Both the position numbers and the translations under genes were made by a program. This document shows positions 10,986 through 60,111 of a DNA stretch of 64,000 bases, one piece after another. The notes under the pieces are model-generated. The model did no database searches, was not told the origin of the DNA, and was given only the letters and a program-made list of their open reading frames with translations. The stretch is from Escherichia phage vB_EcoM-S1P5QW, in the sequence record OL956808.1. The stretch is one strand, 5' to 3'. Position 1 is the stretch's first letter. Each line of letters begins with the position of its first letter.

Positions 10986-10986
10986 G

Positions 10987-11157: not shown

Positions 11158-11160
11158 TTT

Positions 11161-11349: not shown

Positions 11350-11425
11350 GTGGCCGTAGTTCAGTTGGTAGAACTCGAGATTGTGATTCTCGTAGTCATG
11401 GGTTCGACTCCCATCGGTCACCCCA
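11350..11425 (+). tRNA. tRNA-His (anticodon GUG)
   Basis: anticodon loop TTGTGAT, discriminator C73 then CCA, T-arm ATGGGTTCGACTCCCAT. Confidence 0.7.
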
Positions 11426-11429
11426 ATTA

Positions 11430-11505
11430 CGGGGCATAGCTCAGAAGGAAGAGCAAGGACCTTCTAAGTCCTGGGTCGTAGGTTCGATCCCTACTGCCTC
11501 GACCA
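11430..11505 (+). tRNA. tRNA-Arg (anticodon UCU)
   Basis: anticodon loop CTTCTAA, T-arm GTAGGTTCGATCCCTAC, CCA encoded. Confidence 0.8.
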
Positions 11506-11820: not shown

Positions 11821-11848
11821 AGCCCCGACCGAAAGGTTGGGGCTTTTT
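11821..11848 (+). terminator. intrinsic terminator hairpin plus T-run
   Basis: GCCCCGACCGAAAGGTTGGGGC followed by TTTTT. Confidence 0.7.
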
Positions 11849-11894: not shown

Positions 11895-12368
11895 ATGAAA
11901 TCATATGCTCAATTTTTAAATGAAGCGGTGTTAAATGAAGCATCTAGCACCGAAATTCAAGCCGTTGCAAAAGCTGCCATTGCCGCGGGTAAATATTCCT
12001 ATAAAGATGCTTCTGATGAGTCACGATTCCAATTTGCTCGCGATATGAAAGCGGAAGGATTTACAGGGAATGCAGTTAGTATGGCCTGGAAAAGTCTAGT
12101 TGCTACTGGAGCTGCTTTTGCAAAGGCTTCGGGTAAACCTGCTCCTAAAGCAGATCCTAAAGTCACACAAGAGAAAAATATTGTTAAAGGAATTATCTCC
12201 AAATATGAAGCTATCCTTAAAGAGCTTTTAGTAATCAAAACTGAAGGCCAAAAACTGGCTCGTGCTTATAGTTTCAAAGATAACCCACATGCTCACTCTC
12301 TTGAGTATGTTGAAGACATCCAAAAAATTATTAAAGACCGCATTTGGTCTGCTAAACAAATCAAATAA
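11895..12368 (+). CDS. internal-protein-like protein (degenerate capsid targeting sequence)
   Basis: 157 aa, N-terminus MKSYAQFLNEA resembles CTS; Ala/Lys-rich. Confidence 0.55.
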   Translation: MKSYAQFLNEAVLNEASSTEIQAVAKAAIAAGKYSYKDASDESRFQFARDMKAEGFTGNAVSMAWKSLVATGAAFAKASGKPAPKADPKVTQEKNIVKGIISKYEAILKELLVIKTEGQKLARAYSFKDNPHAHSLEYVEDIQKIIKDRIWSAKQIK

Positions 12369-12375: not shown

Positions 12376-12403
12376 AGCCCCGACAGAAAGGTTGGGGCTT
12401 TTT
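12376..12403 (+). terminator. intrinsic terminator hairpin plus T-run
   Basis: AGCCCCGACAGAAAGGTTGGGGCT then TTTTT; near-duplicate of the 11821 hairpin. Confidence 0.7.
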
Positions 12404-12873: not shown

Positions 12874-12903
12874 GTTTACATAGGCTCATGATTGAGATAT
12901 TAT
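12874..12903 (+). promoter_or_regulatory. early promoter with stem-loop
   Basis: GTTTACA then inverted repeat TAGGCTCAT...ATGAGCCTA spanning the -10. Confidence 0.5.
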
Positions 12904-12929
12904 GAGCCTATAACTTTGAGGAGAACATA

Positions 12930-13331: not shown

Positions 13332-13361
13332 GTTTACAAACTCTCGGGAGTAGAGTATAAT
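13332..13361 (+). promoter_or_regulatory. early promoter with stem-loop
   Basis: GTTTACA...GGGAGTAGAGTATAATACTCCC (TATAAT inside hairpin loop). Confidence 0.5.
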
Positions 13362-13405
13362 ACTCCCACGGATTATAAAACCCTTAATTAACTAAAGGAA
13401 ATGCT

Positions 13406-13999: not shown

Positions 14000-14005
14000 T
14001 GATAA

Positions 14006-14024
14006 GGGGCTTCGGCCCCTATTA
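14006..14024 (+). terminator. GGGGCTTCGGCCCC hairpin
   Basis: perfect 5-bp GC stem with UUCG tetraloop after stop codon. Confidence 0.55.
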
Positions 14025-23695: not shown

Positions 23696-23719
23696 AGTCT
23701 CCTTCGGGAGACTTTTTTC
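23696..23719 (+). terminator. intrinsic terminator hairpin plus T-run
   Basis: AGTCTCCTTCGGGAGACT followed by TTTTTT. Confidence 0.7.
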
Positions 23720-23728: not shown

Positions 23729-23759
23729 GTTTACTTTCCGTTTGAGCTGTGATACTATA
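23729..23759 (+). promoter_or_regulatory. early promoter cassette
   Basis: GGTTTAC...GTGATACTATACAACTATC, same -10 module as other cassettes. Confidence 0.55.
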
Positions 23760-24540: not shown

Positions 24541-24570
24541 GTTTACAAGTTGGCAAGGTTATGGTATAGT
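24541..24570 (+). promoter_or_regulatory. early promoter (GTTTAC ... TGGTATAGT)
   Basis: read in sequence directly after upstream stop. Confidence 0.5.
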
Positions 24571-24702
24571 AATCTTGTCAACTTCCAAGGAGAAGAGAAT
24601 GAAAGTTTTGTTTGTTGTGTATGTGATGATTCAATATAATTACCCAATGTTTACTTATAATTTGGTAAACAACATTATTGATATGATTCAGAGGAGTATG
24701 TA

Positions 24703-27434: not shown

Positions 27435-27437
27435 TAG

Positions 27438-27461
27438 GGAGCCTTCGGGCTCCCTTTTTTA
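27438..27461 (+). terminator. intrinsic terminator hairpin plus T-run
   Basis: GGGAGCCTTCGGGCTCCC followed by TTTTTT. Confidence 0.7.
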
Positions 27462-27464: not shown

Positions 27465-27548
27465 CAAAAATTTTTCACAAAGTTGTTTACAAGCATAAAG
27501 CTTTATGGTACTATACAACTATCAACTGATACGGATTTGGAGAATAAA
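27465..27548 (+). repeat. promoter/stem-loop cassette (PeSL-like) copy
   Basis: TTTTTCACAAAGTTGTTTACA...TATGGTACTATACAACTATCAACTG shared with cassettes at 12500, 28920, 54297. Confidence 0.6.
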
Positions 27549-30869: not shown

Positions 30870-31889
30870 ATGAAAACTCGTTCTCAAATTGAAGATATGG
30901 TTCGTAATGCCAGCTATACTCGTGATGTTATGACATTTTTGTGCCAAAATAATTTAGACCCTGATAAAGTTAATCGTGATATTCACTTTAAATATATGAA
31001 TAGCAGTGAATGGTTACGTCATTTTAGTAAAGCGGGGTATATTACACAAATGACTGCTCGTGAGCAGCTCACCGATTTCTGTAAAACTATTGATTATAAA
31101 AATCCTCTATTTGTTCAAGGTGTTGGTCAGAGTAAGGTCGATTTATCATCTGGATTTTTCAATCCAAATCATTATCGTATTGAATGGAGATTTATTGCTC
31201 TATTCCGTAAACAATTAAAGCAAATTTTGTCGACGGCTAGTCGATTAAAAGGTTCTGATATTAACTTAAAGAACCTGAAATTTGATGGTTATACTCTTCA
31301 GATGGAAGTAAGACCATTAAAAGAAAATAATAGAACTGCACGAATTAGCTTTAAACCTAATACAAAAAATTCTCTTTCAATTTGTGAATGTCTTAAATCA
31401 CAGCTGACAGAAGCATTTAAGTATATGGATGTTGTTGCTGCTGTTCAATCTAAGATTTCGCAGCATTTCGAACGATTTAAATTAGATACGACAACATATG
31501 AACTTGATATGATCGTTTCATTTAAATACGATTTTTTGAGAAAGGACGAAGTCCCGCAAGAGAAAAAGCAGGAAGTGCAAGATAACTTAAATTTATCTAA
31601 TTACTCATCAAACGATCCTAAATTTTGGATGTATAGTTCAGGTAATAAAGATGCATGGAAATTCAATAAAGTGAATTTTCTTCCTATTGAAAATCCGAGT
31701 CTTAAACCTGTTGAAAAATGGCACGCGGATGCGATTGAGAAGTCCCTTAAGGCAGTAGATGATGAACTCGTTAAAGCGACCAATGAAGTGTTAGAAGCTG
31801 AAAAGATGCTAGAAAAAGCACAAGAAAAAGTCAAAAATCTCACGAAGCAACGTTCTAAACTGAACAATGCACTAAATGCACTGAACTAG
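30870..31889 (+). CDS. tandem-family protein 2
   Basis: 339 aa; shares central W/R-rich motif and C-terminal coiled coil with neighbours. Confidence 0.55.
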   Translation: MKTRSQIEDMVRNASYTRDVMTFLCQNNLDPDKVNRDIHFKYMNSSEWLRHFSKAGYITQMTAREQLTDFCKTIDYKNPLFVQGVGQSKVDLSSGFFNPNHYRIEWRFIALFRKQLKQILSTASRLKGSDINLKNLKFDGYTLQMEVRPLKENNRTARISFKPNTKNSLSICECLKSQLTEAFKYMDVVAAVQSKISQHFERFKLDTTTYELDMIVSFKYDFLRKDEVPQEKKQEVQDNLNLSNYSSNDPKFWMYSSGNKDAWKFNKVNFLPIENPSLKPVEKWHADAIEKSLKAVDDELVKATNEVLEAEKMLEKAQEKVKNLTKQRSKLNNALNALN

Positions 31890-31919
31890 TTTACTTTGCC
31901 ACAAGGATGTGGTATAATG
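31889..31919 (+). promoter_or_regulatory. early promoter (GTTTAC ... TGGTATAAT)
   Basis: TAGTTTACTTTGCCACAAGGATGTGGTATAAT at the gene junction. Confidence 0.55.
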
Positions 31920-36191: not shown

Positions 36192-38005
36192 CAATTGAAA
36201 AAGAAATTGAAGGATTGATTCATAAAACTAATAAAGACCTTTTAAACGAGAATGCTAATAAAGATTCTCGTGTTTTTCCAACTCAACGGGACCTTATGGC
36301 TGGTATTGTGTCTAAACACATTGCCAAAAATATGGTCCCGTCTTTTATTATGAAAGCGCATGAAAGCGGAATTATTCATTTCCATGATATTGATTATTCC
36401 CCTGCTCTTCCATTTACTAATTGTTGTTTAGTAGATTTAAAAGGAATGCTTGAGAACGGATTTAAGCTTGGTAATGCACAGATTGAAACTCCTAAATCAA
36501 TTGGAGTTGCTACTGCAATTATGGCACAAATTACTGCACAGGTTGCTTCCCATCAATACGGCGGAACGACTTTTGCTAATGTAGATAAAGTACTTTCTCC
36601 TTATGTTAAACGCACCTATGCAAAACATATTGAGGATGCAGAAAAATGGCAAATCGCTGATGCGTTGAATTATGCTCAATCTAAAACAGAAAAAGACGTA
36701 TACGATGCATTCCAAGCTTATGAATATGAAGTAAATACTCTCTTTAGTTCAAACGGGCAAACACCTTTTGTAACAATTACATTTGGTACAGGAACTGACT
36801 GGACTGAACGAATGATTCAGAAAGCAATTCTGAAAAATCGTATTAAAGGTCTCGGTCGTGATGGGATAACTCCTATTTTTCCTAAGCTTGTTATGTTCGT
36901 CGAAGAAGGCGTTAATCTTTACAAAGACGATCCGAATTACGACATTAAGCAACTTGCTTTAGAGTGTGCAAGCAAAAGGATGTATCCTGATATTATTTCA
37001 GCTAAGAATAATAAAGCTATCACTGGTTCATCTGTTCCTGTTTCTCCAATGGGTTGCCGTAGTTTCTTGAGCGTATGGAAAGATTCGACTGGTAATGAAA
37101 TTCTTGATGGACGTAATAATCTTGGTGTTGTAACACTGAATCTTCCTCGCATTGCATTAGATTCTTATATTGGAACACAATTTAACGAACAGAAATTTGT
37201 TGAATTATTCAATGAACGAATGGATTTATGTTTTGAAGCTTTGATGTGTAGAATTAGTTCCTTAAAAGGAGTTAAAGCGACTGTTGCTCCTATTCTTTAC
37301 CAAGAAGGTGCATTCGGGGTTCGTCTTAAACCTGATGACGATATAATTGAGTTATTTAAAAACGGCAGAAGTTCAGTGTCTTTAGGATACATAGGTATTC
37401 ATGAATTGAATATTCTTGTTGGTCGTGACATTGGACAAGAAATTTTAACTAAAATGAATGCTCATCTTAAACAGTGGACTGAAAGAACCGGATTTGCTTT
37501 TAGTTTATATTCGACTCCTGCTGAAAACCTTTGTTATCGCTTCTGTAAACTCGATACAGAAAAATATGGAAGCGTAAAAGATGTTACCGATAAAGGTTGG
37601 TACACTAACAGTTTCCATGTTTCAGTAGAAGAAAATATTACTCCGTTTGAAAAGATTTCTCGTGAAGCGCCATATCATTTCATTGCGACAGGTGGTCACA
37701 TTTCTTATGTTGAACTTCCTGATATGAAAAATAACTTAAAAGGTCTTGAGGCCGTGTGGGATTATGCTGCACAGCATTTAGATTATTTTGGTGTTAATAT
37801 GCCGGTAGATAAATGTTTTACATGTGGAAGTACCCATGAAATGACTCCTACTGAAAACGGATTTGTTTGTTCTATTTGTGGAGAAACTGATCCTAAAAAG
37901 ATGAACACAATAAGAAGAACATGTGGTTATTTGGGAAATCCGAACGAACGCGGATTTAATCTCGGTAAAAATAAAGAAATCATGCATAGGGTTAAACACC
38001 AATGA
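36188..38005 (+). CDS. nrdD: anaerobic ribonucleoside-triphosphate reductase NrdD (uninterrupted)
   Basis: 605 aa; C-terminal glycyl radical region and CxxC pairs (CFTCGSTHEMTPTENGFVCSICG); no intron. Confidence 0.9.
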   Translation: MTIEKEIEGLIHKTNKDLLNENANKDSRVFPTQRDLMAGIVSKHIAKNMVPSFIMKAHESGIIHFHDIDYSPALPFTNCCLVDLKGMLENGFKLGNAQIETPKSIGVATAIMAQITAQVASHQYGGTTFANVDKVLSPYVKRTYAKHIEDAEKWQIADALNYAQSKTEKDVYDAFQAYEYEVNTLFSSNGQTPFVTITFGTGTDWTERMIQKAILKNRIKGLGRDGITPIFPKLVMFVEEGVNLYKDDPNYDIKQLALECASKRMYPDIISAKNNKAITGSSVPVSPMGCRSFLSVWKDSTGNEILDGRNNLGVVTLNLPRIALDSYIGTQFNEQKFVELFNERMDLCFEALMCRISSLKGVKATVAPILYQEGAFGVRLKPDDDIIELFKNGRSSVSLGYIGIHELNILVGRDIGQEILTKMNAHLKQWTERTGFAFSLYSTPAENLCYRFCKLDTEKYGSVKDVTDKGWYTNSFHVSVEENITPFEKISREAPYHFIATGGHISYVELPDMKNNLKGLEAVWDYAAQHLDYFGVNMPVDKCFTCGSTHEMTPTENGFVCSICGETDPKKMNTIRRTCGYLGNPNERGFNLGKNKEIMHRVKHQ

Positions 38006-38472
38006 ATTACGATAGATTTTATCCCTGTGATTTTGTGAATGGCCCTGGATGCAGGGTCGTTCTTTTCGTTACAGGTTGTTTGCATAAATGCGAAGGGTGT
38101 TATAATAAATCAACATGGAATGCTAGAAATGGTGCTCCATTCACTGGTGAAACACTAGAACAATTAATTGAATGTTTGAATAATGATTATATAGAAGGAT
38201 TAACTATAACCGGAGGAGACCCTCTTTATCCTGATAACAGAGACGTGATTCACTCTGTGGTTCAAACTATTAAAAATCTTTATCCCAATAAAAGCATTTG
38301 GTTGTGGACAGGATATAAGTTTGAAGATATTAAACAACTAGAAATGCTTAAATATGTTGATGTTATTATTGATGGGAAGTATGAGAAAAATCTTCCGACC
38401 AAAAAGCTGTGGCGAGGATCAGATAATCAGCGGCTTTGGTCAAATACCGATGGGGTGTGGAAACATGATTAA
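38002..38472 (+). CDS. nrdG: anaerobic RNR activating protein NrdG (radical SAM)
   Basis: 156 aa; Cys cluster CLHKCEGC. Confidence 0.85.
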   Translation: MNYDRFYPCDFVNGPGCRVVLFVTGCLHKCEGCYNKSTWNARNGAPFTGETLEQLIECLNNDYIEGLTITGGDPLYPDNRDVIHSVVQTIKNLYPNKSIWLWTGYKFEDIKQLEMLKYVDVIIDGKYEKNLPTKKLWRGSDNQRLWSNTDGVWKHD

Positions 38473-38587
38473 ATTGAATTATATTATGGATACTATAAAT
38501 GATATGATTTTTCATTTTGGTCCAGAATTTTATTCCCAATATAGTTTAGTGCTTATCAATGCTTGGTTAATTAATTAAGGGTAAAAT

Positions 38588-38800
38588 ATGTATAAATTTC
38601 GTAAAGGTTTAGCTGATTTTCTTACAACTGTAACATTCTTTCTGTTTATGGCAGTTGGAGCTATTTTCCTTATTCCTTTTATTGTTATATTTTTCGTAAT
38701 TAGTTTGATTTCTCCAGAAAAGGGCTTATCTTCTAGTGAGTTCAATGAGCGTCTGGATAAAATTACTAATAAGCTGAATGCTGCTCTTAGTAAGGAATAG
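38588..38800 (+). CDS. small membrane protein
   Basis: 70 aa, central hydrophobic stretch. Confidence 0.45.
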   Translation: MYKFRKGLADFLTTVTFFLFMAVGAIFLIPFIVIFFVISLISPEKGLSSSEFNERLDKITNKLNAALSKE

Positions 38801-38802
38801 TT

Positions 38803-39111
38803 GTGAAACAAAATAAGATTGAAGTCTATGGAATTCCAGATGAAGTAGGTCGTTGTCCTGGATGTCAATCAGTTACAAAACTCCTAAAGGAGCTCAATGC
38901 TCCTTTTACTTTCTATAAAGTTCTTACAAATAATGGTAAGATTGAGTATGATCGTCCACTGATTGTATCTCTTGCTAAACGCGCTGGATTCACATCTCTT
39001 AACATTCGTTATCCGGTCATTTTCATTAATGATTCTAGACAAAAGAACATTAAACACTTCAAAGAAACTCTCATTTCACTTGGATATGATAGAGATATCA
39101 TAGAAGACTAA
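38803..39111 (+). CDS. nrdH: glutaredoxin-like protein NrdH
   Basis: 102 aa with CPGC motif. Confidence 0.8.
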   Translation: MKQNKIEVYGIPDEVGRCPGCQSVTKLLKELNAPFTFYKVLTNNGKIEYDRPLIVSLAKRAGFTSLNIRYPVIFINDSRQKNIKHFKETLISLGYDRDIIED

Positions 39112-39113
39112 GA

Positions 39114-39134
39114 CGGGCCCTCTGGGCCTTTCTT
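39114..39134 (+). terminator. hairpin terminator
   Basis: GGGCCCTCTGGGCC followed by T-rich run. Confidence 0.5.
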
Positions 39135-39208
39135 TCTCACATTCTGTATATTACCATTCTAAGCTATCGTTCCCTTCTTATCATTCCCTAAAATAATTTT
39201 CACAAAGT

Positions 39209-39240
39209 TGTTTACAACAAGTTCAAACCGTGGTATTATT
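39209..39240 (+). promoter_or_regulatory. early promoter cassette
   Basis: TTTTCACAAAGTTGTTTACA...GTGGTATTATT. Confidence 0.55.
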
Positions 39241-39269
39241 AACATATGAATTACCTTTGAGGAATTGAT

Positions 39270-39446
39270 ATGGTTGATAAAGAGATTAAAATTGACCAGT
39301 ACTATCGTGTTAACGGACATATCGTTATTGTTACAGCAGTCGATGATTTAGATGTTCATTATACTGTGATTAAATGGAACAAACGTATGATTTGTGATCG
39401 TGCTGTATTTAGTTCAGTTGCTAAGGAAATTAAACTCCATGGGTAA
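39270..39446 (+). CDS. hypothetical small protein
   Basis: 58-aa ORF below the track cutoff, directly downstream of promoter, RBS GAGGAA. Confidence 0.4.
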   Translation: MVDKEIKIDQYYRVNGHIVIVTAVDDLDVHYTVIKWNKRMICDRAVFSSVAKEIKLHG

Positions 39447-39732
39447 AACGTATCGTCGTAAAGACTTAAAAGTGCGTGATTATGACTATTTCGGAAAGCG
39501 TAAAGCTCCTGATGGGGTAAGTCATAAAGATATGGTTGAAAACATTTTTCGCTCAGATAAATGGCGTAGAATGAAAGGTATTGATTCAGAAGTTAAAGAT
39601 GAGTTAAATCGTCAATTACGTGGTGAAGTAAGAAAGTTGAAAAAATCAGTTTACATTGACGATGATTTTGATTATAATACTTCTCAACGAGTTGCTAAAC
39701 GTAAATCAAACGAGTGTTATCGTTACAGCTGA
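39439..39732 (+). CDS. highly basic small protein
   Basis: 97 aa, Lys/Arg-rich. Confidence 0.45.
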   Translation: MGKTYRRKDLKVRDYDYFGKRKAPDGVSHKDMVENIFRSDKWRRMKGIDSEVKDELNRQLRGEVRKLKKSVYIDDDFDYNTSQRVAKRKSNECYRYS

Positions 39733-39739
39733 GGAAAAT

Positions 39740-39871
39740 ATGAATATCAAACGAATGCTTTTTAAGCAAGGGCTATATACTTTAAATGTTACTCCAAAAG
39801 GTGATACAACTAAGTGGTCAGTAAATGACTGGATTAAATTTATTGATGAAAACGGTAACTGGAAAATTTAA
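39740..39871 (+). CDS. hypothetical small protein
   Basis: 43 aa after RBS GAGGAAAA. Confidence 0.35.
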   Translation: MNIKRMLFKQGLYTLNVTPKGDTTKWSVNDWIKFIDENGNWKI

Positions 39872-40072
39872 ATGAATCCTGAATCTAAATTATCACAACG
39901 AATTGCCGAATCTCGTCGTCAGTTCTTTGAAAATATGATAGCCCAAGGTATTGATGATGAAGTTTTTCTAAACTGGTTTTGGAATCACAAATATTCGAGT
40001 TGCTCAGGAGCAATATTAATATCAGCCGCAATGATGTACGAAGGCTGGAAGGGTGCCAAAAAGTTTAGCTAA
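39872..40072 (+). CDS. hypothetical protein
   Basis: 66 aa, followed by GGGCTTCGGCCC hairpin. Confidence 0.45.
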   Translation: MNPESKLSQRIAESRRQFFENMIAQGIDDEVFLNWFWNHKYSSCSGAILISAAMMYEGWKGAKKFS

Positions 40073-40089
40073 GGGCTTCGGCCCTTTTT
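40072..40089 (+). terminator. GGGCTTCGGCCC hairpin plus T-run
   Basis: AGGGCTTCGGCCCT then TTTTT. Confidence 0.65.
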
Positions 40090-40124
40090 GGATAATAAAA
40101 TTTTAACGTAATTGAGGATAATGT

Positions 40125-40451
40125 ATGACTATTCAAATTAAAAACGTCATTAATTCTTACGCATATGATAAAGTAGTTTCTTTGCTAGAAAAAGGCGATA
40201 TTGTAACTCCTCAAATTTTGGATAAATGGGAAAAAGAGCTTCATCAAATGATGAAACAGAATGATCAGAAGATTGGACGCAATACTGTCCGTGAATTGTT
40301 GGTTCAATATATCTTGTCAGAATTTGATGTTAAAGCTTTTGGTGTAGAATCTAAAGCTTATCAAAAGCATGAAATTTCCGATAAAACTATTCGTCGCATG
40401 AAAAATCAACGCAAGAAAAAATTTGCAGACCTGAAAATTACTAAGGTATAA
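40125..40451 (+). CDS. hypothetical protein
   Basis: 108 aa, RBS GAGGA. Confidence 0.5.
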   Translation: MTIQIKNVINSYAYDKVVSLLEKGDIVTPQILDKWEKELHQMMKQNDQKIGRNTVRELLVQYILSEFDVKAFGVESKAYQKHEISDKTIRRMKNQRKKKFADLKITKV

Positions 40452-40453
40452 TT

Positions 40454-40669
40454 ATGAACGAAGCTCTTATTAACGATTTGCGTCTTGCCGGATATGAAGT
40501 AAATACAAATGGCATTGGTTTAACTCAAATTGAAGGAAACGGATTCATCCTTGAGTATGAATTTAGCCAATGGTGGTTATATGCCAATTACGGCGAATTG
40601 ATTGAATATGTTGATCAATTTGATTCATTAGATGCAGCTCTTGAAGCGGCTAAGTTGATGAATGTATGA
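40454..40669 (+). CDS. hypothetical protein
   Basis: 71 aa. Confidence 0.45.
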   Translation: MNEALINDLRLAGYEVNTNGIGLTQIEGNGFILEYEFSQWWLYANYGELIEYVDQFDSLDAALEAAKLMNV

Positions 40670-40935
40670 AATTTATTAATATTTCTATTACTATTGAAAA
40701 TTATGGCATTTTCTATGTTGACCAATACATGAAAATTTCATTTTTCCCAAATAAGACTGGTGTTGGATATTGGGAAAGCCATGTTTCTGAATTAAATGAA
40801 AGTGAATATGCTAGCACACATGAAAAGTTTTTAGACTTTTTATATCATGCTGATTTAACTAGTCATTATATAGATATTCATGAATTTAAAAAGATGATGG
40901 AGAAAGTATTCCAAGCATACTGCTTACTTAGATAA
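40666..40935 (+). CDS. hypothetical protein
   Basis: 89 aa. Confidence 0.45.
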   Translation: MKFINISITIENYGIFYVDQYMKISFFPNKTGVGYWESHVSELNESEYASTHEKFLDFLYHADLTSHYIDIHEFKKMMEKVFQAYCLLR

Positions 40936-41013
40936 CTGATATCCTCTATGCTTTAAGATAGATCTTCAAATATTATGATATAATAGATCTATGAATTGAG
41001 CTAAGAGGTGAAA

Positions 41014-41571
41014 ATGTCAGAAACTAAGCCTAAATATAATTACGTAAACAATAAAGAGCTTTTACAAGCTATTATTGATTGGAAAACAGAATTAGCAAAT
41101 AATAAAGACCCAAATAAAGTAGTTCGTCAGAATGATACTATCGGATTGGCCATTATGCTTATCGCAGAAGGCTTATCTAAACGTTTCAACTTTTCAGGAT
41201 ACACCCAATCCTGGAAACAAGAAATGATTGCAGATGGTATAGAAGCTTCTATTAAGGGGCTTCATAATTTTGATGAAACGAAATATAAAAACCCACATGC
41301 ATATATAACTCAAGCTTGTTTTAATGCATTCGTCCAACGTATTAAAAAAGAACGTAAGGAAGTTGCAAAGAAATACAGTTACTTCGTTCACAATGTCTAT
41401 GACAGTCGTGACGACGATATGGTTGCGTTAGTAGATGAAACTTTTATTCAAGACATCTACGATAAAATGACGCATTACGAAGAATCAACCTATAGAACAC
41501 CGGGGGCTGAAAAGAAAAGTGTTGTAGACGATTCTCCTAGTTTGGATTTTTTATATGAGGCTAACGATTAA
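41014..41571 (+). CDS. 55: late-transcription sigma factor gp55
   Basis: 185 aa from [20 protein letters not shown], as recalled for T4 gp55. Confidence 0.92.
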
Positions 41572-41773
41572 CCTCTCCGGATTCTTGGAAGAAATACCTG
41601 AAGTTGAAGCTATTCCCTATTTGCTTAAAATGTATCTCAGGGAAGTTTTAGCTCTTGACATTGATATTGATCCAGAAAATCCGTATGATACCGCTTTTAA
41701 ATCTAATGGTGTAGAATTAAATTACAGGTATCATTTAACAGATGATGATTTTTATTTTATATTAGAGAAATAA
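41555..41773 (+). CDS. hypothetical protein
   Basis: 72 aa overlapping gp55 end. Confidence 0.4.
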
Positions 41774-41774
41774 T

Positions 41775-42092
41775 ATGACTGATAAACCCGAAATTAATGA
41801 TGAAGTGGAAAAGCTTATTTCTTCTATTGAAGAAAAGAACCGTCTTGAAGCAGAAAGAAAAGCAAATAAGTTATTGTCTAAAAACAAACGTGAACTGAAT
41901 CGTCTTTATAAGCACGCTCAGATCGCAGCTGAAAATAATAATTTTGCTCAATACGAATATGCTATCAAGAAAAGTCGGGATATTCTAAAACAGCCATATA
42001 ACGATGAACTCATCAGTATTCTTTGGAAGACTACTAGATCGCAAATTGAGGATATGATTGATGCTTACACACGTAAAATTCAAGCGTCTTAA
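41775..42092 (+). CDS. hypothetical coiled-coil protein
   Basis: 105 aa. Confidence 0.45.
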   Translation: MTDKPEINDEVEKLISSIEEKNRLEAERKANKLLSKNKRELNRLYKHAQIAAENNNFAQYEYAIKKSRDILKQPYNDELISILWKTTRSQIEDMIDAYTRKIQAS

Positions 42093-42264
42093 AATTAATG
42101 CAGGATTTACTGAATCTTTGAATGGTCATCTTTGTGTGAAAATTTCTGAAAAAGAATACCATGATAGTTCAATTAAAGAAGTTAATCCTCCTATTGTAAG
42201 AGCAGACCCTAATATGAAAGTGTGGGTTGATTCTTATCAAGTCAAAAAATGGTGGCAGTTATGA
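42058..42264 (+). CDS. hypothetical protein
   Basis: 68 aa. Confidence 0.4.
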   Translation: MMLTHVKFKRLKINAGFTESLNGHLCVKISEKEYHDSSIKEVNPPIVRADPNMKVWVDSYQVKKWWQL

Positions 42265-42267
42265 AAG

Positions 42268-42441
42268 ATGAACACCCAGACTTCTGAAATAGATTATAAT
42301 AAAATTCGTTCCTCTAAAGAGGAAATGATGAGACTCTTTAAAGAGTCTCATGATAAAGCTAAAGCAGAAGGAACTATAAAATATAAGCGCATAAAATTTA
42401 AAAGTTCTAACGAGCCTCTGTATGGCGTATTATGTGGATAG
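42268..42441 (+). CDS. hypothetical small protein
   Basis: 57-aa ORF below the cutoff; stop overlaps the AGGAGCTTCGGCTCCT hairpin. Confidence 0.35.
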   Translation: MNTQTSEIDYNKIRSSKEEMMRLFKESHDKAKAEGTIKYKRIKFKSSNEPLYGVLCG

Positions 42442-42507
42442 GAGCTTCGGCTCCTATATTGCTTTATAAATTTTTGGTAAAATAAACCAAAACAAAGAGG
42501 ATATTAA

Positions 42508-43710
42508 ATGAAAGTATGTATTTTTATGGCTCGAGGTCTTGAAGGTTGTGGTGTAACAAAATTCTCACTCGAGCAACGTGATTGGTTTATTAAAAATAGT
42601 CATGAAGTGACTTTGGTTTATGCTAAAGATAAATCATTTACTCGTAATTGCGCGCATGATTATAAATCATTTTCAATTCCGGTTTTATTGGCAAAAGAAT
42701 ATGATAAAACACTTAAGCTGGTAAATGATTGTGATATTCTAATTATCAATTCAGTTCCTGCTACTTCGGTTGAAGAAGACACGATTAATAACTATAAAAA
42801 AATTATTGATAACATTAAACCTTCTGTTCGTGTTGTAGTTTATCAACATGACCATTCTTCTCTTTCTTTGCGTCGAAATTTGGGATTAGAAGAAACTGTT
42901 CGTCGAGCTGATGTTATTTTTAGCCATTCTGATAATGGTGATTTTAATAAAGTTCTGATGAAAGAGTGGTATCCAGAAACTGTTTCTCTGTTTGATGATA
43001 TTGAAGAAGCACCGACCGTATATAACTTTCAGCCTCCTATGGATATTGCGAAGGTTCGATCAACCTACTGGAAAGATGTTTCTGAAATTAACATGAATAT
43101 CAACCGTTGGATTGGTCGTACGACTACATGGAAAGGTTTTTATCAGATGTTTGATTTTCACGAAAAACATCTTAAACCTGCAGGACTAAGTACTATTATG
43201 GAAGGTCTGGAACGTTCTCCAGCGTTCATTCCTATTAAAGAAAAAGGAATTCCATACGAGTATTATCGTCTTCATCAAGTAGACCAAATTAAAATTGCTC
43301 CTAATTTGCCAACGCAAATTCTTGACCGTTATGTAAATAGCGAAATGCTTGAACGTATGAGTAAATCCGGATTTGGTTATCAGTTGAGTAAGTTGGATAA
43401 AAAATATCTACAGCGCTCTTTAGAATATACTCATCTCGAGCTTGGTGCATGTGGAACAATTCCGGTATTTTGGAAATCTACTGGCGAAAATTTAAAATTC
43501 CGTGTTGATAATACTCCTTTGACCTCGCATGATAGCGGTATCATTTGGTTTGATGAAAATGATATGGAATCAACATTTGAACGTATTAAAGAACTGTCAT
43601 CTGACCGAGCTCTTTATGACCGTGAGCGAGAAAAAGCATATGAATTTTTGTATCAGCATCAAGATTCAAGCTTCTGCTTTAAAGAACAGTTTGACATTAT
43701 TACAAAATAA
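42508..43710 (+). CDS. a-gt: DNA alpha-glucosyltransferase
   Basis: 400 aa; close to recalled T4 alpha-gt (CIFMARGLEGCGVTKFSLEQRDWFIKN...). Confidence 0.9.
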   Translation: MKVCIFMARGLEGCGVTKFSLEQRDWFIKNSHEVTLVYAKDKSFTRNCAHDYKSFSIPVLLAKEYDKTLKLVNDCDILIINSVPATSVEEDTINNYKKIIDNIKPSVRVVVYQHDHSSLSLRRNLGLEETVRRADVIFSHSDNGDFNKVLMKEWYPETVSLFDDIEEAPTVYNFQPPMDIAKVRSTYWKDVSEINMNINRWIGRTTTWKGFYQMFDFHEKHLKPAGLSTIMEGLERSPAFIPIKEKGIPYEYYRLHQVDQIKIAPNLPTQILDRYVNSEMLERMSKSGFGYQLSKLDKKYLQRSLEYTHLELGACGTIPVFWKSTGENLKFRVDNTPLTSHDSGIIWFDENDMESTFERIKELSSDRALYDREREKAYEFLYQHQDSSFCFKEQFDIITK

Positions 43711-43730
43711 AGGGCTTCGGCCCTTTAGCT
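43711..43730 (+). terminator. GGGCTTCGGCCC hairpin
   Basis: AGGGCTTCGGCCCT immediately after alpha-gt stop. Confidence 0.55.
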
Positions 43731-43749
43731 TTATACGGAGTTTGATATA

Positions 43750-43890
43750 ATGATATTTCTTGGATATGTGATACTTTTTCTTGCATTTTATCTATTCACT
43801 AGAGCATGCTGGATTGGGTTCTTTAGCACTCCAGATGGATTTATTTCAATAATTTTATTTTGCATTTCAATGACGGTTCTTGATATATGA
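43750..43890 (+). CDS. small hydrophobic peptide
   Basis: 46-aa ORF almost entirely hydrophobic; stop overlaps gene 47 start. Confidence 0.35.
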   Translation: MIFLGYVILFLAFYLFTRACWIGFFSTPDGFISIILFCISMTVLDI

Positions 43891-44906
43891 AAATTTTAAA
43901 TTTAGGTGATTGGCATTTAGGCGTTAAAGCCGATGATGAGTGGGTTCAATCCATTCAGTTAGATGGAATTAAACAAGCAATAGAATATTCTAAGAAAAAT
44001 GGAATTACTACCTGGATTCAATATGGCGATATTTTTGATGTGCGAAAAGCAATCACGCATAAAACTATGGAGTTCGCTCGTGAAATAGTTCAAATGCTTG
44101 ATGATGCTGGTATTACCCTACATACTGTTGTAGGAAACCATGATATGCACTTTAAAAATACTTTAACTCCAAATGCCTCTACTGAGCTTTTGGCTAAATA
44201 TCCTAATGTTAAAGTATATGATAAGCCTACTACAGTAGATTTTGACGGATGTTTAATTGATTTAATTCCTTGGATGTGTGAAGAAAATACTGGTGAAATT
44301 CTCGAGCACATAAAAACTTCTTCTGCTTCTTTTTGTGTTGGTCACTGGGAACTGAATGGATTTTATTTTTATAAAGGAATGAAATCTCACGGTCTTGAAC
44401 CTGATTTCCTTAAGACTTATAAAGAAGTGTGGTCTGGTCACTTCCATACTATTTCTGAGGCTGCAAACGTCAAATATATTGGGACACCATGGACACTAAC
44501 TGCAGGTGACGAGAATGACCCTCGTGGGTTCTGGATGTTTGATACAGAAACAGAACGAATGGAATTTATTCCAAACAACACTACCTGGCATCGTAGAATT
44601 CATTATCCATTTAAAGGAAAAATTGACTATAAAGATTTTACAAATCTATCAGTACGTGTTATAGTAACTGAGGTAGACAAAAATCTGACGAAGTTCGAAT
44701 CTGAACTAGAAAAAGTTGTGCATTCATTACGAGTTGTGTCAAAGATTGATAACTCTGTCGAGTCAGATGACAGTGAAGAAGTTGAAGTTCAATCTCTTCA
44801 GACGTTAATGGAAGAATACATTAATGCAATTCCAGACATCACTGATTCTGATCGTGAAGCACTTATTCAATATGCAAATCAGTTATATGTAGAGGCAACA
44901 CAATGA
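43887..44906 (+). CDS. 47: recombination nuclease subunit gp47 (Mre11-like)
   Basis: 339 aa; phosphoesterase motifs DWHLG, GNHD, GHWE. Confidence 0.9.
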   Translation: MKILNLGDWHLGVKADDEWVQSIQLDGIKQAIEYSKKNGITTWIQYGDIFDVRKAITHKTMEFAREIVQMLDDAGITLHTVVGNHDMHFKNTLTPNASTELLAKYPNVKVYDKPTTVDFDGCLIDLIPWMCEENTGEILEHIKTSSASFCVGHWELNGFYFYKGMKSHGLEPDFLKTYKEVWSGHFHTISEAANVKYIGTPWTLTAGDENDPRGFWMFDTETERMEFIPNNTTWHRRIHYPFKGKIDYKDFTNLSVRVIVTEVDKNLTKFESELEKVVHSLRVVSKIDNSVESDDSEEVEVQSLQTLMEEYINAIPDITDSDREALIQYANQLYVEATQ

Positions 44907-48559: not shown

Positions 48560-49242
48560 AATTATCTAAAGACACACTGAATATTTTGAAAAATTTCGCT
48601 ACTATTAACTCTGGCATTATGCTTAAATCAGGTCAATTTATTATGACTCGCGCAGTTAATGGTACAACTTATGCAGAAGCAAATATTTCTGACACTATTG
48701 ATTTTGATGTAGCGATTTACGATTTGAACGGTTTTCTCGGTATTCTGTCTCTAGTTAATGATGATGCAGAAATTTCCCAGTCAGAAGATGGAAATATTAA
48801 AATTGCTGATGCCCGCTCAACAATTTTTTGGCCAGCAGCCGATCCGAGTACAGTAGTTGCTCCTAATAAACCAATTCCATTCCCGGTAGCATCTGTTGTT
48901 ACTGAAATTAAAGCTGAAGACCTTCAACAACTGTTGCGTGTATCTCGTGGTCTGCAAATTGATACAATTGCTATCACGGTAAAAGAAGGTAAAATCGTAA
49001 TTAATGGTTTTAATAAAGTAGAAGATTCTGCTCTTACCCGTGTTAAATATTCTTTGACTCTTGGTGATTATGATGGTGAAAATACATTTAATTTCATTAT
49101 CAATATGGCAAATATGAAAATGCAACCAGGAAATTATAAACTTCTGCTCTGGGCAAAAGGTAAACAAGGCGCTGCTAAATTTGAAGGTGAACACGCGAAT
49201 TATGTAGTAGCTCTTGAAGCTGATTCTACCCACGATTTTTAA
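48556..49242 (+). CDS. 45: sliding clamp gp45
   Basis: 228 aa, N-terminus MKLSKDTLNILKNFATINSGIMLKSGQF as recalled for T4 gp45. Confidence 0.92.
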   Translation: MKLSKDTLNILKNFATINSGIMLKSGQFIMTRAVNGTTYAEANISDTIDFDVAIYDLNGFLGILSLVNDDAEISQSEDGNIKIADARSTIFWPAADPSTVVAPNKPIPFPVASVVTEIKAEDLQQLLRVSRGLQIDTIAITVKEGKIVINGFNKVEDSALTRVKYSLTLGDYDGENTFNFIINMANMKMQPGNYKLLLWAKGKQGAAKFEGEHANYVVALEADSTHDF

Positions 49243-49245
49243 TAG

Positions 49246-49259
49246 AGGGCTTCGGCCCT
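49246..49259 (+). terminator. GGGCTTCGGCCC hairpin
   Basis: AGGGCTTCGGCCCT between 45 and 44. Confidence 0.5.
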
Positions 49260-49293
49260 TTATAATTTACACTAAAACTTGAATGAGGAAATT

Positions 49294-51188: not shown

Positions 51189-51198
51189 GGTAAATTAT

Positions 51199-51435
51199 AT
51201 GACACAATCAGAGATTCAGTTTACCGAAGCTTTTCTAATATTCGAAAATCTAAAACAAACATATGGTCTGTCTTCTACTCAACTGGTTTTTGACCTCCCG
51301 GAAGATAAACAAATAGAATTCCAAAAAGAATTCCAACGATTAGTTTACCCACGCCAACGCGCATTTCATGCGATTATCAAAACCACAAATAAAGATGGCA
51401 AGTCCGTTATATCGCGTCGTACAATAGAAATTTAA
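51199..51435 (+). CDS. hypothetical protein
   Basis: 78 aa from ATG 51199 (RBS AAGG). Confidence 0.5.
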   Translation: MTQSEIQFTEAFLIFENLKQTYGLSSTQLVFDLPEDKQIEFQKEFQRLVYPRQRAFHAIIKTTNKDGKSVISRRTIEI

Positions 51436-51440
51436 AGCAA

Positions 51441-51456
51441 AGGGGCTTCGGCCCCT
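51441..51456 (+). terminator. GGGGCTTCGGCCCC hairpin
   Basis: perfect GC stem with UUCG loop upstream of gene 43. Confidence 0.5.
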
Positions 51457-51515
51457 TATTTGGAGTATAATATATCAAGAGCCTAATAACTCGGGCTATA
51501 AACTAAGGAATATCT

Positions 51516-54224: not shown

Positions 54225-54247
54225 AGGGACCTCCGGGTCCCTTTTTC
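54225..54247 (+). terminator. intrinsic terminator hairpin plus T-run
   Basis: AGGGACCTCCGGGTCCCT followed by TTTTT. Confidence 0.7.
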
Positions 54248-54296: not shown

Positions 54297-54386
54297 TTTA
54301 GAATTCCCTAAAAAAATTTCACAAAACTGTTTACAAGACTGTTCTTCCATGGTACTATACAACTATCAACTACGGAGGAACACAAA
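54297..54386 (+). repeat. promoter/stem-loop cassette (PeSL-like) copy
   Basis: AGAATTCCCTAAAAAAATTTCACAAAACTGTTTACAAGACTGTTCTTCCATGGTACTATACAACTATCAACTACGGAGGAACAC; near-duplicate of 12500-12590 and 28920-28981. Confidence 0.65.
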
Positions 54387-56184: not shown

Positions 56185-57023
56185 TTCAATTCGTAATTCC
56201 AAGTTATCAACGTGTCGGGGCAGTTTCTGCCCTTGATATGTTTCCGACTGATTATGAACCGCATATTGTAGTGCGTGAACACGAAGAAAAAGCTTATTAT
56301 GATGCTTATGGGTCTAGAGCTAAAATTATAACTATTCCTGATGATGTAAACGGAATTGCCGGTACTCGTAAAGCAATTACTGATATGTATGCAGGTCAAC
56401 GAATTTGGATGATTGACGATGATACTACTATTCGTATGAGTTCAATGCGAAAAAGAGATGACCGTCGTTGTGTGGATAAAGTCAATCAATTGACTCATGA
56501 ACAGTTCTATGAATTGATTCAATATGTTGAGGATGCCATGGATTGTGGGTATTATCATGGCCATGCTCGTCTACCTATTTTTAAAATTACTTCATCTTGG
56601 GGCAATTATCGTGAAAATTCATATGGATTCACGAATACATGGTATGACCTCGGAAAACTTACTACAGAACAAATTGGGTATGGAAAAATTGATTTATGCG
56701 AAGATATGTATGCATTTCTCAATTTAATTAGTCAAGGTTATCCGCATTTGGCCTTGTTCAAATATCTGGTTGTATCTGGAAAAGCACAAGCTCCTGGCGG
56801 GTGTAGTTCAATTCGTAGTAATTCTAAACATAATAGAGCGCTTGAGCAAATCAATAGAGAGTTTCCAGAGCAAGCTCGTTGGAAAACTTCTAATATTGAA
56901 AAACGAAAATCGTTGGGTGAAGAAGACGAGCCATTAAAGGTTCTTCGCATGTGTGTTTCACGTAAAGAAAAATCAGAAGCATTTCATAAGTTTAATGCTA
57001 TTCATCCAATAGCAGTTGATTAA
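56175..57023 (+). CDS. DNA glycosyltransferase in the beta-gt locus (GT-A fold with DxD; likely T2/T6-type beta-glucosyl-HMC-alpha-glucosyltransferase)
   Basis: 282 aa with WMIDDDTT DxD motif; unlike the 351-aa T4 beta-gt but in the same position. Confidence 0.6.
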   Translation: MEMIQFVIPSYQRVGAVSALDMFPTDYEPHIVVREHEEKAYYDAYGSRAKIITIPDDVNGIAGTRKAITDMYAGQRIWMIDDDTTIRMSSMRKRDDRRCVDKVNQLTHEQFYELIQYVEDAMDCGYYHGHARLPIFKITSSWGNYRENSYGFTNTWYDLGKLTTEQIGYGKIDLCEDMYAFLNLISQGYPHLALFKYLVVSGKAQAPGGCSSIRSNSKHNRALEQINREFPEQARWKTSNIEKRKSLGEEDEPLKVLRMCVSRKEKSEAFHKFNAIHPIAVD

Positions 57024-58282: not shown

Positions 58283-58616
58283 AGATGATTTAGACTTAGA
58301 TCTAGAAATTATCGATGAATCCCCCTCTTCGGAGGGGGAAGAAAGAAAAGAACGTCTTTTTAACGAGTCTCTTAAGATAATTAAATCTGCCATGGAAAAT
58401 GTTATCCAGGAGATTGTCATTAAACTAGAAGATGGTTCTACACATATAGTGTATGTAACTAAACTGGATTGGGTTGATGGAAAGGTTGTAATGGACTTTG
58501 CTGTTCTTGACCAAGAAAGAAAAGCTGAGTTAGCTCCTCATGTAGAAAAATGTATTACAATGCAACTACAAGATGCATTTAATAAAAGGTCAAAGAAAAA
58601 GTTTAAATTCTTTTAA
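58257..58616 (+). CDS. 40: head vertex assembly chaperone gp40
   Basis: 119-aa ORF between uvsX and 41; alternative start ATG 58275 (113 aa) has RBS GGAAGAA. Confidence 0.65.
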   Translation: MIWKNLMNKDDLDLDLEIIDESPSSEGEERKERLFNESLKIIKSAMENVIQEIVIKLEDGSTHIVYVTKLDWVDGKVVMDFAVLDQERKAELAPHVEKCITMQLQDAFNKRSKKKFKFF

Positions 58617-58625: not shown

Positions 58626-60053
58626 GTGGTAGAAATTATTCTTTCTCATCTTATATTTGATCAAGCTTATTTTTCAAAAGTTTGGCCATATATGGATTCA
58701 GAATATTTTGAAAGTGGTCCAGCTAAAAATACATTCAAATTAATTAAATCTCATGTCAATGAGTATCATAGCGTTCCATCTATTAATGCGTTAAATGTTG
58801 CATTAGAAAATAGTTCATTTACTGAAACAGAATATTCTGGTGTAAAAACACTTATTTCAAAACTGGCTGATTCTCCAGAAGACCACAGCTGGTTAGTAAA
58901 AGAAACAGAAAAATATGTTCAGCAAAGGGCGATGTTTAATGCTACGTCTAAAATAATCGAAATTCAAACTAATGCTGAGCTTCCTCCGGAAAAACGAAAT
59001 AAGAAAATGCCGGATGTTGGTGCTATTCCTGACATCATGCGGCAAGCATTATCTATTTCATTTGATAGTTACGTTGGTCATGATTGGATGGATGACTATG
59101 AAGCACGTTGGCTATCTTATATGAATAAAGCTCGTAAAGTTCCATTTAAACTCAGAATTCTAAACAAAATTACTAAAGGCGGAGCTGAGACTGGAACACT
59201 GAACGTTTTAATGGCTGGCGTTAACGTTGGTAAATCATTAGGTCTGTGTTCATTAGCAGCAGATTATTTACAGCTCGGACATAATGTTCTTTACATTTCC
59301 ATGGAAATGGCAGAAGAAGTCTGTGCTAAGCGTATTGACGCTAACATGCTTGATGTTTCTCTTGATGACATTGATGATGGGCATATTTCTTACGCTGAGT
59401 ATAAAGGAAAAATGGAAAAATGGCGTGAGAAATCTACTCTCGGTCGTTTAATCGTTAAACAGTATCCTACTGGTGGAGCAGACGCTAACACATTCAGGTC
59501 TCTCTTGAATGAATTGAAGCTCAAGAAGAATTTTGTTCCAACAATCATTATTGTCGACTATCTAGGTATTTGTAAATCTTGCCGCATCAGAGTTTATTCA
59601 GAAAATAGTTACACAACTGTTAAAGCTATTGCAGAGGAATTGCGTGCTCTGGCTGTTGAAACCGAAACTGTTCTTTGGACTGCAGCACAGGTTGGTAAAC
59701 AAGCTTGGGACTCTTCCGATGTTAACATGAGCGATATTGCAGAATCTGCTGGTCTTCCAGCAACAGCTGATTTTATGCTTGCGGTCATTGAAACCGAGGA
59801 GCTAGCAGCTGCTGAACAACAACTCATTAAGCAAATCAAATCACGATATGGCGATAAGAACAAATGGAATAAGTTTTTGATGGGTGTTCAAAAAGGAAAT
59901 CAGAAATGGGTAGAAATTGAACAAGATTCTACTCCAACCGAAGTGAGTGAAGTAGCAGGTTCACAACAGATTCAGGCTGAACAGAATCGCTATCAAAGAA
60001 ACGAATCAGCTCGAGCTCAGTTAGATGCTTTGGCAAATGAATTAAAATTTTAG
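58626..60053 (+). CDS. 41: replicative DNA helicase gp41 (DnaB-like)
   Basis: 475 aa, GTG start; Walker A GVNVGKS; N-terminus MVEIILSHLIFDQAYF as recalled for T4 gp41. Confidence 0.95.
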   Translation: MVEIILSHLIFDQAYFSKVWPYMDSEYFESGPAKNTFKLIKSHVNEYHSVPSINALNVALENSSFTETEYSGVKTLISKLADSPEDHSWLVKETEKYVQQRAMFNATSKIIEIQTNAELPPEKRNKKMPDVGAIPDIMRQALSISFDSYVGHDWMDDYEARWLSYMNKARKVPFKLRILNKITKGGAETGTLNVLMAGVNVGKSLGLCSLAADYLQLGHNVLYISMEMAEEVCAKRIDANMLDVSLDDIDDGHISYAEYKGKMEKWREKSTLGRLIVKQYPTGGADANTFRSLLNELKLKKNFVPTIIIVDYLGICKSCRIRVYSENSYTTVKAIAEELRALAVETETVLWTAAQVGKQAWDSSDVNMSDIAESAGLPATADFMLAVIETEELAAAEQQLIKQIKSRYGDKNKWNKFLMGVQKGNQKWVEIEQDSTPTEVSEVAGSQQIQAEQNRYQRNESARAQLDALANELKF

Positions 60054-60082
60054 TTTACAGGCTGACAAGACTATGGTATAGT
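60054..60082 (+). promoter_or_regulatory. early promoter with stem-loop
   Basis: GTTTACAGGCTGACAAGACTATGGTATAGTAGTCTTGT (inverted repeat around -10). Confidence 0.55.
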
Positions 60083-60111
60083 AGTCTTGTTGGTTAAATG
60101 AGGAGATTGTT

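Follow-up and report, generated by a model that had tools for sequence, protein, structure and literature searches.

C(UUCG)G hairpins at gene junctions of a T4-like coliphage and their probable division into two classes by U-tract

A short, G+C-rich hairpin with a UUCG loop, AAGGGC[UUCG]GCCCUU, lies at 40071..40086 on the + strand of a 64,000-nucleotide stretch of Escherichia phage vB_EcoM-S1P5QW DNA (OL956808.1), the whole of which is referred to here as the window. The 5' arm of this hairpin overlaps the TAA stop codon (40070-40072) of an ORF resembling 55.3, and nearly identical hairpins recur at other gene ends. A sequence-only reading of the window had proposed that these may be RNA stability or processing elements rather than terminators, as some are not followed by a run of T. 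The locus therefore raises the question of what these hairpins are, and whether they all do the same thing.

The window derives from a T4-like coliphage (Tequatrovirus). Positions 38000-44000 are ~98% identical to many Tequatrovirus genomes, and the genes follow one another as in T4: 6, 5, 53, e, the tRNA cluster, nrdC, nrdD, 55, a-gt, 47, 46, 45, 44, 62, regA, 43, 42, uvsX, 40, 41 and 61. The early and middle genes are those from e onward in this order; their sense strand is the + strand of the window, which corresponds to the minus strand of T4.

Hairpins with a UUCG tetraloop and a C-G closing pair have been found in T4 mRNA and are extraordinarily stable (PMC4371310); that source gives nucleation of folding as the role proposed by the original authors, and states that no protein is known to bind UUCG. 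The work of Tuerk et al. (1988, PNAS 85:1364), as summarised in a later article, described (X)2-8CUUCGG(Y)2-8 hairpins as widespread among phages, T4 being particularly rich in them, with a mainly intergenic location and varied known functions, and reported that reverse transcriptase stops at them (PMC8948821). A study of the RegB nuclease refers to T4 intergenic stem-loops ‘like transcription terminators’, often with a stabilising UUCG tetraloop, within which GGAG motifs resist RegB (PMC1702504). In the literature searched there was no genome-wide map of T4 RNA 3' ends, Term-seq included, and searches on UUCG in intrinsic terminators and on the transcript map of genes 45-43 by Hsu and Karam returned nothing directly usable. 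It is to this class of T4 mRNA hairpins, C(UUCG)G (Tuerk et al., 1988), that the hairpins of the window belong; the class was described in the same phage group in 1988, and its presence here has no novelty. The CUUCGG hairpin now serves as the standard example of hyperstable tetraloops in RNA. The sequence-only reading did not recognise this textbook class.

Number, stability and position of the hairpins

The window contains five exact copies of the 12-mer GGGCTTCGGCCC, always on the + strand (14007-14018, 40073-40084, 43712-43723, 49247-49258 and 51443-51454), where 0.05 copies would be expected by chance; none of 100 shuffles produced five. Its CTTCGG core is present in 29 copies, compared with 12.5 expected. 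A scan of the window for UUCG loops on stems of at least 6 bp returned nine hairpins, all on the + strand, and a tenth hairpin, at 54225, carries a UCCG loop. The closing pair is C-G in every case (C[UUCG]G in nine, C[UCCG]G in one). The recurrence of UUCG hairpins reported earlier is thus borne out, and the sites listed at that time are all real, with the correction that the loop at 54225 is UCCG rather than UUCG and the addition of a site at 58320 that was absent from the list.

Folding calculations with 15-nt flanks return the expected hairpin at all ten sites, with minimum free energies (MFE) of -10.8 to -17.7 kcal/mol; nearest-neighbour prediction gives -6.3 to -14.1 kcal/mol for the core hairpins. 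Z-scores of the MFE against shuffles are modest for single hairpins (-1.3 to -4.3), which is usual when a sequence is short and its G and C are clustered. When the entire window was scanned against Rfam, tRNAs were the sole hits at the gathering score, and the hairpins are covered by none of its families.

All ten hairpins are on the coding strand, and nine of them start 0-12 nt from a stop codon, in keeping with their earlier placement at gene ends. The stop codon is part of the stem at 40071, 42438, 43708 and 49242, and the hairpin begins 1-12 nt past it at 14005, 23696, 27436, 51440 and 54225. The remaining hairpin, at 58320, is inside gene 40.

Nine of the ten are present at orthologous junctions in T4 (NC_000866): after e.6 (69306), rI.-1 (58814), nrdC.11 (55433), a-gt.2 (38734) and a-gt (36626), at 55.3 (40838-40823), between 45 and 44 (31914), between regA and 43 (29969-29952, directly after regA) and inside gene 40 (22348). 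Two stems differ between T4 and the window, solely by a G-C to G-U change, one of them being the 55.3 counterpart of the hairpin at 40071. At the tenth site, after gene 43, T4 keeps the same stem with a UCCA loop.

U-tracts and neighbouring signals

Each site was given a U-tract score and a d'Aubenton-Carafa-type discriminant (d). The hairpins at 27436, 54225 and 23696 are terminator-like (d of +23 to +49.5), those at 40071 and 51440 borderline (~+3), and those at 14005, 43708, 42438, 49242 and 58320 not terminator-like (-12 to -42), on a scale whose zero point is approximate, the discriminant being a reimplementation of that of d'Aubenton-Carafa et al. (1990) with modern energy parameters. 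Five of the ten have a weak U-tract or none, in line with the earlier remark that some lack a T-run. The tails at 14005, 43708, 49242 and 51440 contain 5 U in their first 8 nt; several tails of the T-poor class are thus still U-rich (14005, 43708, 49242), and partial termination could occur there. These calculations were used in place of a generic terminator scan, which misses 40071 and 51440 because the stem absorbs the first Us, and which classes 42438 as terminator-like. Likewise, a generic sigma-70 scan was uninformative in this AT-rich DNA (99 sites, 87 expected) and was replaced by searches for T4-specific motifs.

The strongest terminator-type element is AGGGAGCC[UUCG]GGCUCCCU followed by U5AUUU (27436..27455, + strand), which begins 1 nt past the nrdC.11 stop codon (d = +49.5; MFE -17.7 kcal/mol, z = -3.7). 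The hairpin AGUCUCC[UUCG]GGAGACU with a U5 tail (23696..23713, + strand), 4 nt past the rI.-1 stop, is also of the intrinsic-terminator type (d = +23), as is AGGGACC[UCCG]GGUCCCU with U4 (54225..54242, + strand; d = +25), which has a UNCG-family loop and lies 12 nt past the gene 43 stop. Early-type promoter motifs of the form GTTTAC[AT]-N17-TACTAT are found on the + strand 16-87 nt beyond these three hairpins: GTTTACT-N17-TACTAT at 23729..23758, 16 nt after the first of the two sites just described, and GTTTACA-N17-TACTAT at 27485..27514 and 54329..54358, 30 nt after the nrdC.11 hairpin and 87 nt after the gene 43 hairpin, respectively. The combination of a U-tract with an early-type promoter downstream indicates that all three are probably ordinary intrinsic terminators.

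The hairpin at 40071 itself is a borderline case (d = +3.5). It is followed by UUUGG, which makes a U5 tract if the Us of the stem are included, and the start codon of 55.2 is ~39 nt downstream. The second borderline element, AAGGGGC[UUCG]GCCCCUU followed by AUUUGGAG (51440..51457, + strand; d = +3.1), is 4 nt past an 81-aa ORF inserted after regA, and the translational operator hairpin of gp43 lies 22 nt downstream of it. A MotA box hidden in its loop (GCTTCG compared with GCTTCA) was considered and rejected, as the spacing to TATAAT is 15 nt, against 11-13 nt at clear MotA-type sites.

Two of the hairpins without a U-tract are stable stem-loops between co-transcribed cistrons. AGGGGC[UUCG]GCCCCU (14005..14020, + strand; d = -12) lies 5 nt past the e.6 stop codon and 8 nt upstream of the e.5 Shine-Dalgarno sequence GGAG; AUAGAGGGC[UUCG]GCCCUUUAU (49242..49263, + strand; d = -28, z = -4.3) is at the gene 45 stop codon, within the 45-44-62 unit, with the gene 44 Shine-Dalgarno sequence 22 nt downstream. 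At both sites, and at 40071, the next cistron has its Shine-Dalgarno sequence and ATG 8-28 nt downstream of the hairpin. The T4-specific motif search found no promoter motif between hairpin and next start codon at the 45/44 and e.6/e.5 junctions, and genes 44 and 62 therefore appear to depend on read-through.

Two further elements adjoin middle promoter motifs of the MotA-box type, each identified by motif match alone. The hairpin AUAGGAGC[UUCG]GCUCCUAU (42438..42457, + strand; d = -26) overlaps the TAG stop of a-gt.2, has no clean U-tract and is followed after 3 nt by TGCTTTA-N11-TAAAAT (42460..42483, + strand) upstream of a-gt. The first three bases of UAAAGGGC[UUCG]GCCCUUUA (43708..43727, + strand; d = -14) are the a-gt stop codon; its U-tract is interrupted, and it abuts AGCTTTA-N12-TATAAT (43727..43751, + strand) upstream of 47.1/47. 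In MK373781, a public T4-like record, the orthologs of 40071, 42438 and 43708 are annotated as putative terminators. The last element, UCCCCCUC[UUCG]GAGGGGGA (58320..58339, + strand; d = -42), lies within the reading frame of gene 40 (…ESPSSEGE…), 37 nt past the uvsX stop codon, and its A-rich tail, AAGAAAGAAAAG, indicates that it is not a terminator.

Conservation, covariation and strand asymmetry

At the 45/44 junction a G+C-rich hairpin follows the gene 45 stop codon in every lineage examined, down to 53% gp45 identity. It is built on eight different stems (GAGGGC, GGATGGTC, GGGGU, GGGCC, GGGGC, GGAGCC, GGGAC and GAGGCC), and its loop is UUCG in most variants, with one case each of UACG, UUUG and GAAA. 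A loop-anchored alignment of 13 distinct sequences has 93% of its cells paired and changes on both sides in six of seven pairs, counts that are somewhat inflated by the choice of the best hairpin at each junction for comparison. None of 500 shuffles reached this degree of covariation, and pairing fell to 55-62% when the partner was slid by one column. As G+C-rich tetraloop hairpins occur at a density below ~0.3 per kb in the T4-like genomes examined, chance does not account for their presence at this junction in all the lineages. The pattern is the same at the e.6, rI.-1, nrdC.11, a-gt, a-gt.2 and regA junctions. Counterparts of the hairpin at 43708 in relatives have UUCG, UUUG, UCCG or ACCU loops.

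The presence or absence of a U-tract is also conserved site by site. Taking a U-score of at least 3.5 as a strong U-tract, we found none among the 13 hairpin-bearing lineage variants of the 45/44 junction, where the maximum is 1.83, and none among the nine variants of the e.6 junction, all of which have the hairpin. At the rI.-1 junction the hairpin is present in all 16 variants, ten of which have a strong U-tract (median U-score 4.33).

The hairpin in gene 40 is kept within the frame in relatives, with UUCG or UCAG loops. In the most distant of these (L038) the peptide has shifted to SSPSGEE and a compensated stem, CCUCCCC[UUCG]GGGGAGG, is retained, which suggests that RNA structure constrains the coding sequence of gene 40.

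In order to compare the two strands we used ~1.35 Mb of T4-like phage sequence around gp45, gp43, nrdC.11, e.6 and gp55, with the early sense strand set as +. The sense strand carries 385 distinct G+C-rich tetraloop hairpins; UUCG is the loop in 112 of these, closed by C-G in 110, and GAAA is the second commonest loop (37/385). The antisense strand of the same sequence has three UUCG loops. A count over the complete genome of T4 gives 22 hairpins with a UUCG loop, one of which is the bypass hairpin of gene 60; 19 are on the minus strand and three on the plus strand. The latter come after late genes 18, 23 and 37, themselves on the plus strand, so that all 22 are sense to their flanking genes. 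A DNA palindrome would lack such an asymmetry of the loop; the elements act as RNA, not DNA.

These comparisons dispose of two explanations of the recurrence. Chance or a compositional artefact is ruled out by the excess of the 12-mer over shuffles and by conservation at orthologous junctions in T4 and more distant relatives. Elements working at the level of DNA (cruciforms, for example, or boundaries of recombination or homing, or sites bound by a phage protein), with the RNA hairpin incidental, would fit the positions at module boundaries, the extra ORFs between regA and the hairpin in some lineages, the location of mobB after the a-gt.2 hairpin in T4 and the recurrence of one 12-mer. Such a palindrome is symmetric in DNA, yet UUCG is found 112 times on the sense strand and three times on the other, the orientation of the hairpins switches strand with the genes across T4, the stems vary freely provided that pairing is restored, with only the loop and the C-G pair that closes it held constant, and no proteins are reported to bind UUCG (PMC4371310). 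We regard a DNA-level role as very improbable, and a palindrome or protein-binding site in DNA as excluded in view of the asymmetry between strands and the covarying stems.

Proposed roles and relation to known elements

Taken together, these results make it likely that the ten elements are classical hyperstable C(UUCG)G (UNCG-family) hairpins of T4-type mRNAs and that they fall into two classes. Identity with the T4 elements, specificity for the sense strand, conservation of the loop with covariation of the stem and site-wise conservation of the U-tract are observed; from these sequence features we infer the functional division into classes, the efficiency of termination and a role as exonuclease barrier. 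Each hairpin would form once transcribed, at or just beyond the stop codon of its cistron. Those of class I (23696, 27436 and 54225, with 40071 and 51440 borderline) would mark the ends of early transcription units, working as intrinsic terminators that need no factor. At class II sites (14005, 42438, 43708, 49242 and 58320) RNA polymerase would largely read through, and the hairpin would most likely serve as a barrier to 3'-to-5' exonucleases, possibly also as a weak pause. An endonucleolytic cut in the AU-rich spacer, or at a downstream GGAG, would then leave the upstream cistron with a protected 3' end and give rise to cistron-specific mRNA stability within polycistronic units, for example of 45 relative to 44-62. 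RNase III substrates were considered and rejected, the stems (5-9 bp) being too short.

The class II hairpins are thus probably 3'-exonuclease barriers or processing boundaries. The low U-score of the 45/44 junction in 13 hairpin-bearing variants with compensatory stem changes fits a role in stability or processing, and the suggestion of the sequence-only reading to this effect seems reasonable for the T-less copies and agrees with the comparative data, though it is not new. It does not extend to the set as a whole, about half of which have U-tracts, three with early-type promoters downstream. Just as well, the hairpin at 45/44 might shield a processed 44-62 mRNA at its 5' end, or keep the translation initiation region of gene 44 insulated.

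There are two other readings of the hairpins that lack a U-tract. All ten may be intrinsic terminators of graded strength, the stability of C(UUCG)G making up for poor U-tracts and the T-less copies being leaky attenuators, and not stability elements, which adjust how much is transcribed upstream relative to downstream. The 5 U within the first 8 nt of the tails at 14005, 43708, 49242 and 51440 would be in agreement with this, as would the terminator-like call at 42438 in the simple scan and the labels given to the orthologs of 40071, 42438 and 43708 in MK373781; the hairpins at 42438 and 43708 also closely precede motifs of the middle-promoter type, a position at which shielding against transcription from upstream would be sensible. 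Against it, the U-score at 45/44 does not exceed 1.83 in 13 independent lineage variants that strictly keep the hairpin, the hairpin at 58320 is within a reading frame and is followed by A-rich sequence, and genes 44 and 62 have no promoter motif of their own between hairpin and start codons. This reading is unlikely on balance, and it retains some weight.

It is also doubtful that the U-tract-less hairpins act chiefly on translation or on the downstream RNA. They might nucleate a local fold that leaves the next ribosome-binding site single-stranded, break the coupling between the terminating ribosome and the next cistron or, after upstream cleavage, form a protective stem-loop at the new 5' end, comparable to the leader of gene 32, for which stabilisation of the T4 mRNA by a 5' CUUCGG hairpin has been reported (PMC8948821). 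The Shine-Dalgarno sequences and ATG codons 8-28 nt past 14005, 40071 and 49242, beyond an AU-rich unstructured spacer, are consistent with such a role, as are the stems that overlap stop codons and the nucleation role that the original authors put forward (PMC4371310). The hairpins at 23696, 27436, 54225, 42438 and 43708 precede promoters rather than standing directly before a ribosome-binding site, and the one at 58320 is inside a gene; we consider an effect of this kind unlikely as a general account.

Within our preferred reading of two classes, the U-tract-less hairpins may be more than degenerate terminators and make up a separate class of post-transcriptional punctuation, conserved in position, within the Tevenvirinae, a proposal that we advance tentatively and with rather more doubt than confidence. 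Its main examples are the 45/44 element and the in-frame hairpin of gene 40. If it is correct, this punctuation would set the relative stability or expression of gp45 and gp44/62, and of UvsX and gp40/41. In some lineages, palindromes within early promoters might substitute for hairpins without a U-tract. The 45/44 junction and the internal hairpin of gene 40 offer clean test cases for the idea that such hairpins bar exonucleases or mark the boundaries of processing in polycistronic mRNAs of phages. For annotation, the consequence is that half of these hairpins should not be labelled automatically as terminators, as is done in at least one public record.

The closest known relatives of the window elements are the C(UUCG)G hairpins of T4 itself, of which every defining feature that could be checked is found here: the phage group, the gene junctions, the UUCG loop with its C-G closing pair, the short G+C-rich stems, and the mostly intercistronic position in sense orientation. 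The window differs in single G-C/G-U changes in two stems, in UCCG rather than UCCA after gene 43 and in small indels or ORF insertions beside some hairpins, none of which is essential. Intrinsic terminators of E. coli and its phages are marked by a G+C-rich hairpin that leads straight into a U-tract of ~7-9 nt. With them the elements at 23696, 27436 and 54225 (40071 and 51440 borderline) share a G+C-rich hairpin with a U-tract and a position where one transcription unit ends and a promoter follows; they differ as a set in that five of the ten have no U-tract, an absence conserved at 45/44 and e.6, and that one lies inside a coding region. The same window contains GNRA-loop terminators at 11821-11844 (GAAA) and 12376-12399 (AGAAAG), which resemble the UUCG elements in their location at the end of a gene or RNA cluster, their G+C-rich stem and their U-tract, but belong to another family of stable tetraloops and have a longer stem. 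The REP elements of the E. coli malE-malF operon and the hairpins of the Rhodobacter puf operon are intercistronic stem-loops that stabilise mRNA. They have in common with the window elements a stable stem-loop between cistrons and a proposed block to 3' exonucleases that favours the upstream gene, the latter role being a suggested one here; the window hairpins have no kinship to REP sequences, and their stems are far shorter (5-9 bp), with stability that comes from the tetraloop.

Hairpins that overlap reading frames

The UUCG hairpin at 58320-58339, a C(UUCG)G tetraloop element, lies within the reading frame of gene 40, whose codons CCC, UCU, UCG, GAG and GGG make up the stem. In L038, the most distant relative in the gene 40 comparison, the register of the encoded peptide is altered and the hairpin is retained. 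Because the hairpin persists despite this change, the comparison suggests that selection acts at the RNA level on the gene 40 coding sequence at this position. A further hairpin, GGGGCAG[UUU]CUGCCC (56217-56233), falls within an ORF overlapping the end of gene 42; almost every lineage retains this hairpin, its loop being UUU, UUA or UAA. Its conservation probably reflects coding constraint on the peptide G-A-V-S/T-A-L, and not an RNA element.

At the 55.3 junction (window 40066-40072, T4 40799-40838), the relationship between hairpin and reading frame differs between this phage and T4. The 55.3-like ORF of the window encodes 66 amino acids and its TAA stop codon falls within the 5' arm of the hairpin, while the annotated T4 ORF 55.3 (80 aa) continues for 14 further codons, through the hairpin; the two sequences are distinguished here by a 1-nt indel.

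Inverted repeats at early-promoter-like sites

At several early-promoter-like sites (GTTTAC[AT] … -10), long inverted repeats with stems of 7-16 bp enclose the spacer and the -10 region, as in AAGTTGGCAAGGTTAT[GGTATA]GTAATCTTGTCAACTT. Sites of this kind are found at 8897-8935, 12874-12911, 13332-13367, 24541-24584, 31889-31914 and 60053-60095. The overall enrichment is modest: 12 of the 27 early-promoter-like sites have stems of 7 bp or more, compared with 27% of random windows. The junctions after 55.3, 43 and 41 carry promoter palindromes in other T4-like lineages and a UUCG or UCCG hairpin in this phage or T4; since the same junctions hold both kinds of element, the palindromes may also provide read-through transcripts with a 3' hairpin.

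Gene content around hairpins

The gp43 translational operator hairpin, AGCCU[AAUAACUC]GGGCU (51480-51497), which was the original SELEX target in T4 (PMC3014915), is located 22 nt downstream of the UUCG hairpin at 51440-51457. In T4 the latter hairpin directly follows regA, whereas in the window an 81-aa ORF of unknown function (phrog_3826, 51190-51435) is inserted between the two; in other lineages this position is occupied by different ORFs. Newly acquired genes appear to enter between a gene and the hairpin at its 3' end.

Just past the tRNA/small-RNA cluster, an ORF at 11895-12368 is flanked by two terminator-type hairpins, at 11821-11844 (loop GAAA) and 12376-12399 (loop AGAAAG), which have the near-identical stem AGCCCCGAC(C)…GGTTGGGGCT followed by U5. 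A late-promoter motif, TATAAATA, is present at 11851, downstream of the first of these. The cluster itself comprises 10 tRNA genes at 9913-11502 (Rfam), against eight annotated in T4, where it is interrupted by the homing-endonuclease gene segB. A second homing-endonuclease gene of T4, mobB, separates a-gt.2 from a-gt (T4 37885-38679); it is absent from the window phage (42457-42508), in which a-gt lies directly downstream of the a-gt.2 hairpin and a MotA-type motif.
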